Sequence record: PZ445439.1
Direction: 5' to 3' (one strand)
Length of the DNA: 64,000 nt
Source: a phage
In this document: piece after piece, positions 37,175 to 44,142 of the stretch
Layout: the number at the start of each line of letters is the position of its first letter
How positions within the stretch are numbered: position 1 is the stretch's first letter
Notes under the pieces: model-generated
The model's database searches: none
The model's input: only the letters and a program-made list of their open reading frames with translations
What the model was told of the DNA's origin: nothing
Translations under genes and position numbers: made by a program

Positions 37175-38134
37175 TCACTTCCACTGCATTTCACATGCTA
37201 ATTGAATGAAAAGATAAGCTAAATGTAATTCAGTGTTAGCTGCAATACCATGATACTGATTATTTTCGCCGACAATTTCGTACATACGAATAATACTCTG
37301 TGGAGTTACACGTGAATAGATTTCTTCGGCAAGTTTACCCACGAACCACGAATAATCAGCTGCATATTTTGGTGCTAAAGCTCTGAGTTGTTTAACATCT
37401 TTATTTTTGAGAGACTCAAGAACATCATCAATAGCGCCACGATCGTTAGTAACCAGTGATAAAATACCAGCATCCAAAACACCTTTAGATGAATAACTAT
37501 CGAGCTCGCCAATAGTTTTACGAAAATCAGGAAAATTCTTTTTAACCAAAGCTGCTACAACTTTCATATCAGCTATAGCAATTCCTTCATGCTTACAGAT
37601 TTCAGTCAATCGACGAATCATCTGCTTCATCATTTCAATTTTATCTTCATCGGTCGGTTGACCGAACGTAATAACTCGGCAGCGTGACTGAAGTGGTTTA
37701 ATAATACCATCAATATTGTTAGCAGTAATAATAATACTACAGTTTGAACTATAAGCTTCCATAAAGGAACGAAGATGTCGCTGAGATTCTGCTAAACCTG
37801 AGCGGTCAAATTCATCAATAACGATTACTTTTTGACGACCATCAAATGAAGCTGCACTCGCAAAATTAGTTAAAGGACCACGAACGAAATCAATTTTACA
37901 GTCTGATCCATTTACAAACATCATATCAGCATTTACATCATGACACAATGCTTTTGCTACAGTTGTTTTACCTGTTCCTGGAGAAGGAGAATGAAGAATA
38001 ATATGTGGAATCTTACCTTTACTTGTAATAGATTTAAAGGTTTCTTTATCAAAGGCGGGAAGAATACATTCATCGATAGTAGATGGACGATATTTCTGTT
38101 CAAGAATGTGTTCTTTTTCATTTACGGTAATCAT
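37175..38134 (-). CDS. 44: clamp loader ATPase gp44 (AAA+, RFC-like)
   Basis: start at MITVNEKEH gives 319 aa as in T4; Walker [15 protein letters not shown] Walker B, SRC-like motif. Confidence 0.9.
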
Positions 38135-38169
38135 AATTTCCTCATTCAAGTTTTAGTGTAAATTATAAA

Positions 38170-38181
38170 GGGCCGAAGCCC
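38170..38181 (-). terminator. UUCG-tetraloop hairpin downstream of gene 45
   Basis: GGGC-UUCG-GCCC immediately after stop. Confidence 0.5.
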
Positions 38182-38185
38182 TCTA

Positions 38186-38872
38186 TTAAAAATCGTGGGT
38201 AGAATCAGCTTCAAGAGCTACTACATAATTCGCATGTTCACCTTCAAATTTAGCAGCACCTTGTTTACCTTTTGCCCAGAGCAGAAGTTTATAATTTCCT
38301 GGTTGCATTTTCATATTTGCCATATTGATAATGAAATTAAATGTATTTTCACCATCATAATCACCAAGAGTCAAAGAATATTTAACACGGGTCAGAGCAG
38401 AATCTTCTACTTTATTAAAACCGTTAATTACGATTTTACCTTCTTTTACCGTGATAGCAATTGTATCAATTTGCAGACCACGAGATACACGCAACAGTTG
38501 TTGAAGGTCTTCAGCTTTAATTTCAGTAACAACAGATGCTACCGGGAATGGAATTGGTTTATTAGGAGCAACTACTGTACTCGGATCGGCTGCTGGCCAA
38601 AAAATTGTTGAACGGGCATCAGCAATTTTAATATTTCCATCTTCTGACTGGGAAATTTCTGCATCATCATTAACTAGAGACAGAATACCGAGAAAACCGT
38701 TCAAATCGTAAATTGCTACATCAAAATCAATAACGTCAGAAATATTTGCTTCCGCATAAGTTGTACCATTAACTGCGCGAGTCATAATAAATTGACCGGA
38801 TTTAAGCATAATGCCAGAGTTAATAGTAGCGAAATTTTTCAAAATATTCAGTGTGTCTTTAGATAATTTCAT
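38186..38872 (-). CDS. 45: sliding clamp gp45
   Basis: 228 aa as in T4; UUCG hairpin right after stop. Confidence 0.9.
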   Translation of the reverse strand: MKLSKDTLNILKNFATINSGIMLKSGQFIMTRAVNGTTYAEANISDVIDFDVAIYDLNGFLGILSLVNDDAEISQSEDGNIKIADARSTIFWPAADPSTVVAPNKPIPFPVASVVTEIKAEDLQQLLRVSRGLQIDTIAITVKEGKIVINGFNKVEDSALTRVKYSLTLGDYDGENTFNFIINMANMKMQPGNYKLLLWAKGKQGAAKFEGEHANYVVALEADSTHDF

Positions 38873-39756
38873 TTCAATTTCCTATTTACATAATAGTTAG
38901 ACCAGGACCGTACAGCACCCTGATAAGATTCGTCGTTAAACCCATTAGCTACTGCAATTTTACGAAATTTATTATAACTTGGTTTTCCGTAAGCATGCCA
39001 TAAAGATTTTAATTCATCTTCATGTTCAATCCAAGTTCCTCTAGCTTTAGATTTTCTAAATTTTGATTTGAATTCCGGTAAATTATTTCTAACAGTTGCT
39101 TGAATTGAAGCTCTCTGTCTTCTTTCAGCATTATTCCATAATTCTTTTTGAGATTTAGAAATTTTTGATCTTACACTTTCTGAATTCATTATATCACTAA
39201 ACTTTTTAGCATAACTACAATTAAGATATTTCAATTTCATCTTATTTGAGAGTTTAAGCTTTTTCTCATCGGTCCAGTGATTCTTCATTGAATTAGATAT
39301 TTTGTATTTTACTTCAGAACTATGTTTGTAACCTTTACGAATACCGACATACTCAGGCGTAATTTCAGATTGCGAAAGCTTTACAATTTTTCCAGTTAAA
39401 ACATTTTTATATGTTCCATATCCTTTAGCACCAATTAAAGTATTTTCATCTGCGTATGCTTTATTAAAATATTTTATATTACTTTTTGCTTTAACTTTTA
39501 ATTGAAAAAATCTCTCCAATTTTCTTGGATCTAATATAGTTTCAGCTAAAATTTTGACGGTATATTTAGTGGTTTTAATAAGTTCAAAATATTCATCGCT
39601 ATAACTCGATGACACGCTTCCAGTATAAATCTTTCCAGCTGAATCAATTATATTTGTTCCATCGAAAATTGCGTTAATTTTTGAACCTATATAATAACAC
39701 GGAAAAATATTTTTAGCTTCCCGCTCTGGAAAGCTAATAAGATATACTAAATTCAT
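38869..39756 (-). CDS. free-standing GIY-YIG homing endonuclease (Seg-like)
   Basis: 295 aa; N-terminal [10 protein letters not shown]...CYYIGSK resembles GIY...YIG motif, basic C-terminal DNA-binding-like region; inserted between 45 and rpbA. Confidence 0.55.
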
Positions 39757-40142
39757 TTATTAAACTCGGCCACAATTGTTTCCGCAACAATTTGAGCAGC
39801 AACAATTAGACGTTCATCTGCATTACCACAATAATCATCTTCAAGGCGTTCACCACATGAAGTCATAATAAATTTAGCACCGGCGTTTAGGGATTCTGTA
39901 GTATGTTTGCGCATTAGTTCAATCCATTTATTACTTACTTCACGATCGATAGCTTCATAATACGCATGACGAGCAGGTGCAGATTTAATTTTGTTCTGAA
40001 TAACTTCCATTGCGTTATCAGAAAGAGACAAAACCCATGCTCGACGAATTTTATTTTGGTTTTGTGGATTTGATTCAGAACGCACGTGTTTTGGCTGAAT
40101 ATCTTTTACGTCAACAGTATAATTCACAGTAATTTTAGTCAT
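39753..40142 (-). CDS. rpbA: RpbA-like RNA polymerase binding protein
   Basis: 129 aa as in T4 RpbA, position upstream of 45. Confidence 0.5.
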
Positions 40143-40395
40143 AATACACCTTTAGTCATAATAATCAGTAACAGTCCAAGCTTCATTTCTATTGGACATT
40201 ATTTTTGTATATTCTGCTTTAAATGCATTCCTAAGCATAGATTCAGTAACTATATGCTCTTCATTAGAAAAATTATTTCTCAGAATATATCGTTTTATTT
40301 CAGGAAAAGTTAATAAATGCTGTCCAGTTGAATATTCCATGTTTTTCCTCCATAGAGATTATACTCTAATAAATTAAAGCATAATCTCTTATAAA

Positions 40396-42078
40396 TTAAA
40401 CCATTACAGTAAATCGACCAACTTTCTTCATTTGAAGATGCTGACCATATTCTTGTGGGTCATGGTCTTTATGCGAAATTATAAAAACATTAGTATTTTT
40501 CATTGAATTTATAATATTCGCTACACCTTTAATACCTTCGGCATCAAATGACCCATCAAACACTTCATCGAGTATTAATGTACTAATACTAACACCAGAT
40601 ACAATAGAAGCAATATCACGCCAAGTAAATAAAAGAGCAATATCAATTCTTGCCTTTTCACCTTCACTAAATGAAGCATAACTAAAATCTTCACGACCAC
40701 GGGATTTAATTGTCTCATTAAATTCTTCATCTAATGTAAACACATAATCCGCTTCCATTATTTTAAGATAATGGTTAATCTGCTTATTAAATAATGGAAT
40801 GTACTTTTTAATAATAGCACCTTTAATACCAGAATCTTTGAGCATATCAGTCAAAATTCCTCGGTGGTATTTTTCCATTACTAAATTAGTTTTTGTCTTA
40901 ACAATTTTATCAAGTTCTTCTTGAAGCAGTGCTATTTCATCAGCATGGTCAATAAACTCAGAAGATGCTTTTTCTATAGCCGCTTTAACCTTTTTAGCTT
41001 TATCTACTGTCGTGATTAGAGATTGCTTTTTATTGCGAATATCATTTGCCAACGACTGTTGGGTTTTAATATTATCTCGGTATTCATCAACAAGAACTTT
41101 TAAATTATCACGATGTGTTGAAAGCTGTTCAAACGAATGCGTACATTCAGAAACTTTATCTTTAATTTTAGAAACAACTTTATCACCGGAACTCAATTGC
41201 GACAAACAGGTTGGACATAATCCACCTTCGTGATACATATTAATGACTTTATTATATGAGTCAATTTTTGATTTAATTAAAACTGCTTCTTGACCGATTT
41301 TATTAAATGCATCAGTCGGGTCTTCATCCAAAACAATATTAACTAATCTTTCATTAGCTTCTTCTATTTCCGATTTTAGCGTTCTAGCTTCTTTTGCCAA
41401 ATCATCGTACATATTTTGCAGACGAGTAAGGTTGTCACCCGTTAATTTTTTCTGGCGTTCAACGTTATCATTATATATTTTAATTTGTTGGATAATACTA
41501 TCTTTTTTAACATCAAGCACTTGGTTTTGTGAATTTAATTCACGTATTAGTGCTTTATTAAGCTTATCCATTTCAGCTAATGTTCCTACCTCAAGCAGGT
41601 CTTCCACAAGCTTTCTTCGTGCAGGGGTCGACAAACCCATGAAAGGGGTATACCCTGCTGTACCAAGGACAACAATCTGCTTGAAACTGGCATATGACAT
41701 TCCGATAAGCTGTTCAAATTCTGCTTGGAAATCTTTACTGCTGGCAGATTCATTAAGACGTGTACCGTTAACGGTGATTTCGAAAACGTTTGGTTTTTGT
41801 CCTCTTTTGATATAGTACTTTTTCTCATCATATTCCATCCACAGTTCAACTAAAAGTTCTTTCTTATTTGTGCTGTTTATTAATTGACCTTTCTTTACAT
41901 CACGGAATGGCTTGCCAAAAAGCCCAAATGTGATGGCTTCTAACATAGTAGACTTACCACCGCCATTTCGTCCAGTAATAAGAGTTTTTTGAACCTTATC
42001 TAATTGAATGTCAATAGGATTTCCACCTACTGACATTATATTTTGATACCTAACTCGGTTTAGTTTAAAATTCTTCAC
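40396..42078 (-). CDS. 46: recombination endonuclease subunit gp46 (Rad50/SbcC-like ATPase)
   Basis: 560 aa as in T4; Walker A GRNGGGKST, long coiled coil with CPTC zinc hook, signature/Walker B at C-terminus. Confidence 0.9.
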   Translation of the reverse strand: MKNFKLNRVRYQNIMSVGGNPIDIQLDKVQKTLITGRNGGGKSTMLEAITFGLFGKPFRDVKKGQLINSTNKKELLVELWMEYDEKKYYIKRGQKPNVFEITVNGTRLNESASSKDFQAEFEQLIGMSYASFKQIVVLGTAGYTPFMGLSTPARRKLVEDLLEVGTLAEMDKLNKALIRELNSQNQVLDVKKDSIIQQIKIYNDNVERQKKLTGDNLTRLQNMYDDLAKEARTLKSEIEEANERLVNIVLDEDPTDAFNKIGQEAVLIKSKIDSYNKVINMYHEGGLCPTCLSQLSSGDKVVSKIKDKVSECTHSFEQLSTHRDNLKVLVDEYRDNIKTQQSLANDIRNKKQSLITTVDKAKKVKAAIEKASSEFIDHADEIALLQEELDKIVKTKTNLVMEKYHRGILTDMLKDSGIKGAIIKKYIPLFNKQINHYLKIMEADYVFTLDEEFNETIKSRGREDFSYASFSEGEKARIDIALLFTWRDIASIVSGVSISTLILDEVFDGSFDAEGIKGVANIINSMKNTNVFIISHKDHDPQEYGQHLQMKKVGRFTVMV

Positions 42079-42521
42079 AAAAGATTCCTTTTAATGTATC
42101 TTTTAGACCATTCTATCATATCATCATAATCTAAAAAGTATTCATCAAATTCAGCCATGCAAACAACACCTTGTGCTGCTTTTGATGTGATATAAATTAT
42201 TCCAACATATCTAGAATCTTCTTCGGTATAATCAATATTTGCTATGAATTCATCATTAATGTCAAATGTCGAAAACTTCACAGTATGCATCCTTAATACA
42301 AGATACGGCCATATCTCGCAATGATTTAGGTGTGTCATTATCTAAAATGTTGAAGTTAAAAGATACAGCCCAATCTGTACAGACCGTGACCTTTTTAATA
42401 CAATTATCTTCAACCTCTAGCGGTTCAAACCAATATTCAATAATTTCTTTATGACCAATATCATCTTTTACTTCGCATTCAAAATGCTGACTCATCATAA
42501 CATTTTTAAATTCATCAAAAG

Positions 42522-43541
42522 TCATTGTGTTGCCTCTACATATAGCTGATTTGCATATTGAATAAGTGCTTCACGGTCAGAATCAGTGATGTCTGGAATT
42601 GCATTAATGTATTCTTCCATCAACGTCTGAAGCGATTGAACTTCAACTTCTTCACTGTCATCTGACTCGACAGAGTTATCAATTTTTGACACAACTCGTA
42701 ATGAATGCACAACTTTTTCTAGTTCAGATTCGAACTTCGTCAGATTTTTGTCTACCTCAGTTACTATAACACGTACTGATAGATTTGTAAAATCTTTATA
42801 GTCAATTTTTCCTTTAAATGGATAATGAATTCTACGATGCCAGGTAGTATTGTTTGGAATAAATTCCATTCGTTCTGTTTCTGTATCAAACATCCAGAAC
42901 CCACGAGGGTCATTCTCGTCACCTGCAGTTAGTGTCCATGGTGTCCCAATATATCTGACGTTAGCAGCCTCAGAGATAGTATGGAAGTGACCAGACCACA
43001 CTTCTTTATAAGTCTTAAGGAAATCAGGTTCAAGACCGTGAGATTTCATTCCTTTATAAAAATAAAATCCATTCAGTTCCCAGTGACCAACACAAAAAGA
43101 AGCAGATGAAGTTTTGATGTGCTCAAGAATTTCACCAGTATTTTCTTCACACATCCAAGGAATCAAATCAATCAAACACCCGTCAAAATCTACCGTAGTA
43201 GGCTTATCATATACTTTAACATTAGGATATTTAGCCAAAAGCTCAGTAGAAGCATTTGGATGCATTACATTTTTGTAGTGGAGATCGTGATTTCCTACAA
43301 TAGTATGTAATGTGATTCCAGCATCATCAAGCATTTGAACTATTTCACGGGCAAACTCCATAGTTTTATGTGTGATTGCTTTTCGCACATCAAAAATATC
43401 ACCATATTGAATCCATACAGTAATTCCATTTTTCTTAGAATATTCTATCGCTTGCTTAATTCCATCAATTTGAATACCGCGAATCCACTCATCATCAGCT
43501 TTAACGCCTAAATGCCAATCACCCAAGTTTAGTATTTTCAT
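42522..43541 (-). CDS. 47: recombination endonuclease subunit gp47 (Mre11/SbcD-like)
   Basis: 339 aa as in T4; calcineurin-like phosphoesterase motifs (GDWH, GDIFD, GNHD, GHWE). Confidence 0.9.
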   Translation of the reverse strand: MKILNLGDWHLGVKADDEWIRGIQIDGIKQAIEYSKKNGITVWIQYGDIFDVRKAITHKTMEFAREIVQMLDDAGITLHTIVGNHDLHYKNVMHPNASTELLAKYPNVKVYDKPTTVDFDGCLIDLIPWMCEENTGEILEHIKTSSASFCVGHWELNGFYFYKGMKSHGLEPDFLKTYKEVWSGHFHTISEAANVRYIGTPWTLTAGDENDPRGFWMFDTETERMEFIPNNTTWHRRIHYPFKGKIDYKDFTNLSVRVIVTEVDKNLTKFESELEKVVHSLRVVSKIDNSVESDDSEEVEVQSLQTLMEEYINAIPDITDSDREALIQYANQLYVEATQ

Positions 43542-44142
43542 GGTGTCTTTTCCATCCTAATTTAGCTGCTTTTGAAACCAGTTCTTTAATTTTTCCTTTT
43601 GTCCATTCAGGACCAGGAGGTTCATGACATAACATTTGCTTAACTCCGTTATTATACCATTTTTTACCTTTATTATGTGATGAAGCTTTAAATTTATTTG
43701 ACCTTCCTTTTACATAACCTTCTGGAATATAAGGCAAAAAGGCAGATTTTCCTGTTAATGGATCATGTGAATGTATATTTCCTTTACAATTATGAGAACC
43801 ATATAATGGATGATTTTGTCCTTTATTATCTCTTCCAAATGAACCTTTTGGAGCAGCATATGACATATTAAAGAATAATGGATTTTTAACTGCATCATGC
43901 AATCGTTGATAATATAACTCGCATTTAATAGCTTCTTCACGCGTATCAAATTCAGCTAAAATGCATGAATCAAATAAGTGAGGATTATCTGAAAGCTCTT
44001 TATTATAAATTTTCTTATACTTTTTAGATAAAACTGAACCATGATATCCAGCTAAATGCCTATCTAAAGACGTAGATCCAATATAAAAAGGAGGAAGTTT
44101 ATCTCCACTATATATTGTTAAATAAGTTATATATTTTTTCAT
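43519..44142 (-). CDS. GIY-YIG-like homing endonuclease (putative)
   Basis: 207 aa; YITYLTIYSG...PPFYIGSTS, conserved R/H and E (REEAIKCELYYQ), C-terminal GKKWYNNG-type basic motifs common in phage homing endonucleases. Confidence 0.45.
   Translation of the reverse strand: MKKYITYLTIYSGDKLPPFYIGSTSLDRHLAGYHGSVLSKKYKKIYNKELSDNPHLFDSCILAEFDTREEAIKCELYYQRLHDAVKNPLFFNMSYAAPKGSFGRDNKGQNHPLYGSHNCKGNIHSHDPLTGKSAFLPYIPEGYVKGRSNKFKASSHNKGKKWYNNGVKQMLCHEPPGPEWTKGKIKELVSKAAKLGWKRHHENTKLG

Follow-up and report, generated by a model that had tools for sequence, protein, structure and literature searches.

A probable Seg-type endonuclease gene at the rpbA/45 junction

Between rpbA and gene 45 of phage sequence record PZ445439.1, of which a stretch of 64,000 nucleotides (nt) was analysed (the window), lies an open reading frame (ORF) of 295 amino acids whose product is very probably a T4 Seg-type homing endonuclease, free-standing and from the SegG-like branch of the GIY-YIG enzymes. 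We put the probability of this reading, in which the activity is predicted, at about 80%. Homology to SegG, a match to PHROG 655 and a patchy distribution among phages uphold what the original prediction, made from the letters of the window, had proposed: a free-standing GIY-YIG homing endonuclease. The coordinates and N-terminal motifs quoted there match the ORF listing of the window exactly. The predicted homing endonuclease gene (HEG) and its flanks are as follows.

38869..39756, minus strand: putative free-standing HEG, SegG-like GIY-YIG family, 295 amino acids (ORF listing; PHROG 655)
38186..38872, minus strand: gene 45 (sliding clamp, 228 amino acids), downstream flank of the HEG (ORF listing; annotation of homologous records)
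39753..40142, minus strand: rpbA (RNA polymerase binding protein, 129 amino acids), upstream flank of the HEG (ORF listing; annotation of homologous records)

The HEG begins with ATG and is oriented like both neighbours, in a run of genes on the same strand that continues downstream of gene 45 with 44, 62 and regA, and upstream of rpbA with 45.2 and 46. It is joined to each flank by a 4-nt ATGA overlap, between the rpbA stop and the HEG start at 39753-39756 and between the HEG stop and the gene 45 start at 38869-38872. Its G+C content is 28.9%, versus 35-36% in the flanking gene 45 and rpbA.

We found that the protein matches PHROG 655, 'homing endonuclease', with an expectation value (E) of 6.6e-33, and that its residues 1-102 are 40% identical to T4 SegG over 103 amino acids (E = 3e-9 by tblastn against 2.3 Gb of phage genomes, 1e-16 by pairwise BLASTP). 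An exhaustive profile search recovered 267 cluster representatives (clusters at 50% identity) at E = 1e-3 or better, and conservation in the family was scored in an alignment of 122 sequences. An identical protein is deposited as QXV83531.1, 'putative homing endonuclease', from Escherichia phage PaulHMueller of the BASEL collection; near-identical copies are labelled 'homing endonuclease' in RefSeq and UniRef, and the gene is also annotated in several GenBank records. Given these existing annotations, some of them putative, the finding is no surprise. Members of the cluster are also deposited under Escherichia coli and Shigella flexneri assemblies, and under Bacillus cereus as well, presumably as phage contamination.

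Distribution among related phages

A megablast search with positions 38100-40400 of the window as query against 50,697 phage records matched 625 records. The whole query is covered in 24 of these 625, the HEG carriers (HEG+), and the others match the two flanks only, 62% of the query. An alignment of relatives, which the original prediction had put forward as a check, thus finds the insert in a minority of records and not in all relatives. T4, FriedrichZschokke, slur14, 215Ecol030PP, RPN226 and LH2 have in its place the same spacer of 55-56 bp between rpbA and gene 45; that of T4 measures 55 bp, and T4 has no gene here, in agreement with the original prediction. The spacer in HEG-less phages holds a consensus MotA-type middle promoter, TGCTTTA-N12-TAAAAT (L007:847-871 in T4), which is absent from HEG+ genomes. 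Since HEG-less phages carry the spacer where the window carries the ORF, the element replaces the spacer and is not a gene common to all relatives. The HEG is therefore an insertion or replacement that is polymorphic among close relatives.

The same rpbA/45 site is occupied in Mosigvirus (AV118 and at least 10 other records) and in Gaprivervirus (TH15) by homologues that are 55-59% identical. In all three genera, Tequatrovirus included, the HEG stop overlaps the ATG of gene 45, and the HEG start overlaps or abuts the rpbA stop.

The HEG evolves under purifying selection. The ratio of non-synonymous to synonymous substitution rates (dN/dS) is 0.03-0.30 among Tequatrovirus copies and 0.14-0.23 between genera, with dS above 1.6 between the homologues of the three genera. 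Because it matches PHROG 655 and is under purifying selection, the ORF did not arise merely by chance; the gene is genuine and probably active. In the record of Shigella phage ESh24 (ON528734.1, UNVERIFIED; L017:770-1658), a 1-nt insertion splits the HEG into two ORFs, which may be a sequencing error or a decaying copy.

Sequence changes at the junctions

Two tracts that border the HEG are altered in HEG+ genomes.

39753..39772, minus strand: HEG-linked variant of the rpbA 3' end, seven substitutions (VAEFNK and stop versus AADFNR and stop; genome comparison)
38813..38872, minus strand: variant 5' end of gene 45, a candidate homing or cleavage-site region, altered in HEG+ genomes (15 substitutions relative to a T4-type allele, 13 of them in nt 7-33, 38840..38866)

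The closest view of these tracts comes from FriedrichZschokke, which is HEG-less. Over 4421 aligned nt it differs from the window at 53 positions, 22 of them no more than 60 nt away from a junction (binomial P ~7e-21). All 15 mismatches in gene 45 fall in nt 7-60, 13 of them in nt 7-33, and all seven in rpbA fall in nt 371-389; outside the junction tracts there are zero mismatches for about 1.0-1.2 kb on each side. The rpbA 3' end differs from that of the window by 7-8 nt in six of six HEG-less phages and by 0-3 nt in four other HEG+ phages, and the ATGA in which the rpbA stop and the HEG start overlap arises from the variant form. Among the 11 genomes compared, this is the only tract that is fully linked to the HEG.

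The HEG+ phages GRNsp7, N2, SfPhi01 and SHBML-50-1 share the junction tracts of the window with 0-3 differences. In the rest of gene 45, 13-18 differences separate the first three, which are more distant, from the window, with another 7-14 in rpbA; the corresponding numbers for SHBML-50-1 are nine and four. As the flanks of the window beyond the junctions are identical to those of a HEG-less phage while the junction tracts follow the HEG, the cassette is found in different genomic backgrounds. Phages whose surrounding genes differ have in common the cassette plus about 20 nt of flank on its upstream side and 33-60 nt on its downstream side. A homing element that co-converts only short tracts is expected to leave such a pattern, which supports the reading of an active, horizontally moving homing cassette with its target at the rpbA/45 junction, where cleavage is predicted. 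The pattern among phages, with the nested partial tracts of HEG-less phages, is also consistent with preferential inheritance of the HEG and co-conversion of flanking markers.

Changes in the same part of gene 45 recur in other genera. In a comparison of the HEG+ Mosigvirus AV118 with the HEG-less Mosigvirus AlbertHofmann, 13 of 34 downstream differences form a dense patch at nt 9-26 of gene 45, and codons 3-9 are recoded in HEG+ Mosigvirus relative to the HEG-less phage of the same genus. Codons 3-9 also look recoded in the Gaprivervirus TH15, for which the only comparator is a HEG-less Dhakavirus phage. HEG-less Tequatroviruses and Mosigviruses have ATGAAACTGTCTAAAGATACTA in common at the gene 45 start, and GATACT at nt 16-21 is altered in all three HEG+ lineages, to GACACA, GAAACC and GACACC.

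Some HEG-less Tequatroviruses have the HEG+-type 5' allele of gene 45 in part or in full (slur14, L006:901-960; RPN226, L011:1511-1570; LH2, L012:1511-1570) but keep the T4-type spacer and rpbA end.

A divergent GIY-YIG domain and a basic C-terminal half

The protein can be divided into four parts.

39442..39756, minus strand: N-terminal catalytic domain (predicted), amino acids 1-105, divergent GIY-YIG (V4-Y5, Y22-I23-G24, E81, N98)
39322..39441, minus strand: beta-rich linker, amino acids 106-145, family motif Y.TYK..TGK.V.L....YVG (AlphaFold2 model, family consensus)
39052..39321, minus strand: basic helical repeats, amino acids 146-235, degenerate NUMOD3-like K(I/L)S...K..W helices, presumed to bind DNA
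38872..39051, minus strand: clade-specific C-terminal helical module, amino acids 236-295, presumed specificity module

In the family alignment Y5, Y22, G24, Y44, S47 and N98 are invariant, and conservation reaches at least 90% at V4, P19, I23, S25, K26, E81 and F97; none of the invariant residues is missing from the window copy. The GIY strand is represented by V4-Y5 within a predicted strand at 2-8, with Y5 aligned to Y6 of I-TevI, and the YIG strand by Y22-I23-G24 within a predicted strand at 21-26, aligned to Y17-V-G19 of I-TevI; a low-confidence hhalign alternative pairs YVGS of I-TevI with Y44-T-G-S47. By alignment only, E81 in helix 77-87 is the candidate metal-binding Glu, its context ERFF corresponding to ENFW around E75 of I-TevI, and the invariant N98 in YFN corresponds to the terminal Asn of I-TevI (N90, in GYN). 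In the AlphaFold2 model the domain adopts an alpha/beta fold around a three-stranded sheet and resembles solved GIY-YIG domains, and model and alignment place a beta-hairpin insertion of about 20 residues after the YIG strand. The N-terminal domain is thus homologous to SegG, with a predicted fold like that of the I-TevI catalytic domain. PF19835, SegE_GIY-YIG, is matched by seven of the 122 family members.

In the same model the linker has strands at 113-118, 124-128 and 136-138, with a confidence score (pLDDT) of around 90. The long basic C-terminal region of the original prediction is confirmed by composition: residues 146-295 hold 34 K+R versus 14 D+E, with an isoelectric point of 10.1. 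NUMOD3 is a weak Pfam match in the window protein (E = 0.1, below the cutoff) and is present in 85 of the 122 family members. Through this helix the family profile matches the I-TevI DNA-binding domain 1i3j (E = 1.8e-4), hhalign pairing a segment of the window protein with I-TevI KHSDITKSKISEKMKG; the full-length hhalign probability against I-TevI (67%) is likewise driven by the NUMOD3 helix. The last 60 amino acids are common only to homologues at the same rpbA/45 site, and searches of this segment gave neither a known fold nor any other recognisable relative.

Expression signals within and around the gene

A Shine-Dalgarno sequence and three candidate promoter motifs bear on the expression of the HEG and of gene 45.

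38880..38883, minus strand: Shine-Dalgarno AGGA for gene 45, inside the penultimate HEG codons AAT AGG AAA (read from the sequence)
38971..38996, minus strand: candidate MotA-type middle promoter for gene 45, inside the HEG, ATGCTTAC-N11-TATAAT (consensus match only)
39213..39188, minus strand: second near-consensus MotA motif inside the HEG (consensus match only)
40356..40383, minus strand: motif of a MotA-type middle promoter, TATGCTTTA-N12-TATAAT, located upstream of 45.2, a likely source of a 45.2-rpbA-HEG-45 message (pattern scan)

At the 3' end of the HEG, AATAGGAAA is kept in the Tequatrovirus, Mosigvirus and Gaprivervirus copies. The two internal MotA motifs also have counterparts in the other genera, that at 38996..38971 in AV118 (L004:2765) and TH15 (L005:2762), and that at 39213..39188 in AV118 (L004:2549) and TH15 (L005:2546). 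A strict MotA-box scan within the ORF returned near-consensus motifs only, and a strict late-promoter scan (TATAAATA) of the ORF and its vicinity gave no exact match, the nearest being TGTAAATA at 38890..38883. Upstream of the HEG ORF there is no clear Shine-Dalgarno sequence or promoter of its own. The overlap of the HEG start with the rpbA stop suggests that the two genes are translationally coupled on a transcript that begins at the MotA-type promoter before 45.2, a motif that is also found in T4 (L007:217).

Proposed mechanism

In a mixed infection with a HEG-less phage, the protein would bind the T4-type rpbA/gene 45 junction through its basic NUMOD3-like helices and the clade-specific C-terminal module, and the GIY-YIG domain would cut close by, the likeliest place being the first ~30 nt of gene 45. 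Repair of the break from the HEG+ genome would give the recipient a copy of the HEG with a short stretch of its flanks, and would exclude the local markers of the recipient. The carrier would itself be protected, because its 55-bp spacer is replaced and nt 7-33 of gene 45 and the rpbA end are altered. Expression of the HEG is probably low, with translation apparently coupled to that of rpbA on the transcript that would start at the middle promoter before 45.2. Gene 45, which is essential, would take its ribosome-binding site and perhaps a promoter from the 3' end of the HEG, so that loss of the element by deletion would be costly.

Points against the proposed reading, and alternatives to it

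Several observations weigh against this reading and its details. A Pfam search with the full ORF gave sub-threshold matches only and no match to PF01541 (GIY-YIG) even at E up to 10, and an NCBIfam search with the protein gave no match. The canonical catalytic Arg (R27 of I-TevI) has no conserved counterpart in the N-terminal domain across the 122-sequence family; K26, Y44 and S47 are the conserved residues there, and K26 or K42 may take its place. In hhalign, the profile of this domain against residues 1-100 of I-TevI reached a probability of 2.4%, aligning YxGS only, which is not significant; this comparison was dropped as evidence in either direction. The promoter motifs described above are consensus matches only. 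Furthermore, about 35 or more HEG-less records carry the HEG+-type patch at nt 21-33 of gene 45 (slur14 type; TLNIL versus TTALL), and the HEG-less phages RPN226 and LH2 carry HEG+-type sequence at nt 7-33. As the gene 45 5' allele is not strictly linked to the HEG, the target cannot be fixed in silico.

The first of these points needs to be interpreted cautiously. T4 SegG is likewise not matched by Pfam GIY-YIG, so the Pfam result for the window protein says little, and SegG, an active enzyme, is also without the canonical Arg. A sequence search of the PDB with the window protein returned nothing relevant. The search that had been proposed for a GIY-YIG domain came out in favour of it, with qualifications: PHROG 655, the homology to SegG and the I-TevI-like predicted fold speak for the domain; Pfam PF01541, the N-domain hhalign and the missing Arg do not.

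The original prediction had also placed the likely target in the 45/rpbA region of relatives. This is supported, though not proven: HEG-linked changes occur only in the final 20 nt of rpbA and in the initial 33-60 nt of gene 45. A definition of the target site by strict linkage of the HEG with the gene 45 5' allele failed, HEG-less records carrying the allele in part or whole. The nested partial tracts in gene 45 could be products of short-patch repair, selected resistance alleles or pre-existing polymorphism.

Purifying selection that spans the whole ORF, nuclease domain included, argues against a HEG-derived gene that is catalytically dead or domesticated, no longer homing and kept for the ribosome-binding site or possible promoter of gene 45 or as a DNA-binding regulator. 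We regard such a gene as improbable, although it would accommodate the lack of a conserved Arg at the GIY-YIG position and of a Pfam GIY-YIG match, the location of the gene 45 Shine-Dalgarno sequence and candidate promoter inside the ORF, and the deletion of the T4 spacer middle promoter; I-TevI, moreover, doubles as an autorepressor (PMC2988022). All family-invariant residues are present, as in active SegG, a Shine-Dalgarno sequence would need only a few 3' codons, and the occurrence of the cassette in different backgrounds with short linked tracts is as expected for ongoing transfer.

A further explanation, somewhat less probable still, is that the HEG is ancestral at this site in the Tevenvirinae and was lost from most lineages, so that the polymorphism reflects deletion and not invasion. 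Same-site homologues in three genera, at dS above 1.6, do imply a long association with the site. However, the conserved spacer of HEG-less phages holds a middle promoter that HEG+ genomes lack, which indicates replacement and not simple deletion, and beyond the junction tracts the window matches a HEG-less phage without a difference over more than 1 kb of each flank, where other HEG+ phages do differ from it. The incongruence between HEG and flanks in the comparison of HEG+ genomes, the lower G+C content of the HEG and the low fraction of carriers (24/625) also count against loss. That the protein is a nuclease with a non-homing role (attack on competing phages or host DNA, or anti-defence), with its adjacency to gene 45 incidental, is very unlikely, as its closest relatives are Seg-type homing endonucleases, and site fidelity in three genera together with junction-restricted substitutions is a homing signature.

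With a Seg-type homing endonuclease as the preferred reading, we tentatively advance one joint claim, which we consider possible but rather doubtful as a whole: that the SegG-like clade uses an Arg-less GIY-YIG active site, in which K26/Y44/S47 replace the R27 helix; that the window enzyme has its target within the first ~30 nt of the essential gene 45; that the partial HEG-type gene 45 alleles are conversion scars or resistance alleles; and that the MotA-dependent gene 45 promoter has been replaced by signals inside the HEG. If true, the partial alleles would be traces of an arms race that is still under way at the clamp gene, and expression of the clamp in carriers would depend on signals inside a selfish gene.

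Significance of the locus

A literature search found no described endonuclease at rpbA/45, and neither rpbA nor gene 45 is mentioned in a review of T4 mobile elements from 2010 (PMC2988022). The rpbA/45 junction is a new insertion site for a Seg-type endonuclease, and the sliding-clamp gene is probably a new target. We give the finding modest weight, as an ordinary example of a familiar type of selfish, mobile element in a minority of T4-like phages. The locus nevertheless bears on how T-even phages, the model phages of the BASEL collection among them, exclude each other's markers and become mosaic, and the window phage and FriedrichZschokke, which apart from the cassette show no difference over more than 1 kb to either side, form a ready experimental pair. 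The Arg-less catalytic domain common to SegG and the window protein could inform GIY-YIG chemistry.

Elsewhere in the window, two overlapping ORFs of 87 amino acids are found at 42075..42525 on the minus strand, between genes 46 and 47, where T4 has 46.1 and 46.2.

Comparison with known homing endonucleases

A second Seg-like GIY-YIG ORF is present in the window at 43519..44142 (minus strand, 207 amino acids), between gene 47 and a-gt. It matches the N-domain profile of the family (E = 2e-11; hhalign 98%) and scores 21.4 bits against Pfam GIY-YIG, for which the cutoff is 22.6. By nearly reaching the Pfam cutoff and matching the family profile, it links the SegG-like family to canonical GIY-YIG enzymes. 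It is also polymorphic (present in 68 of 604 records), and T4 is without a copy. Like the window HEG, this ORF and SegA-F are intergenic, follow the orientation of their neighbours and are patchily distributed; unlike it, they keep the canonical Arg after YIG (YIGSTSLDRH in the 47/a-gt ORF) and have other C-terminal domains and target sites.

I-TevI of the td intron has the same two-part design as the window protein, an N-terminal nuclease followed by an extended C-terminal DNA-binding region (presumed in the window protein), and both have a NUMOD3-type helix, SKISxxxK, in degenerate form in the window protein. I-TevI is intron-encoded, whereas the window HEG is free-standing, lacks an equivalent of Arg27, has the hairpin insertion after the YIG strand, and is without a zinc finger or a detectable helix-turn-helix of the I-TevI type; the sequence similarity of the two nuclease domains is not significant alone.

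T4 SegG (gene 32.1) is an experimentally active free-standing GIY-YIG endonuclease, encoded between genes 32 and 59, that targets gene 32, and segG harbours gene 32 promoters (PMC2988022). The two differ in site (59/32 for SegG, rpbA/45 for the window HEG), in length (210 versus 295 amino acids) and in target (gene 32 versus, presumably, gene 45/rpbA), and the activity that is proven for SegG is predicted from sequence for the window HEG. Their C-terminal halves are unrelated, that of the window HEG consisting of NUMOD3-like basic helices and the clade-specific tail of 60 amino acids. The N-terminal domains, with the identity given above, share the same invariant set (VY, PxYYIGSK, GKxY..S, E, YFN); both lack the canonical Arg, and the Pfam GIY-YIG profile misses both. 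Both genes are free-standing, promoter-less cassettes directly upstream of an essential replication gene, and in both the expression signals of that downstream gene lie inside the endonuclease ORF, as is known for segG and as the candidate signals suggest for the window HEG.

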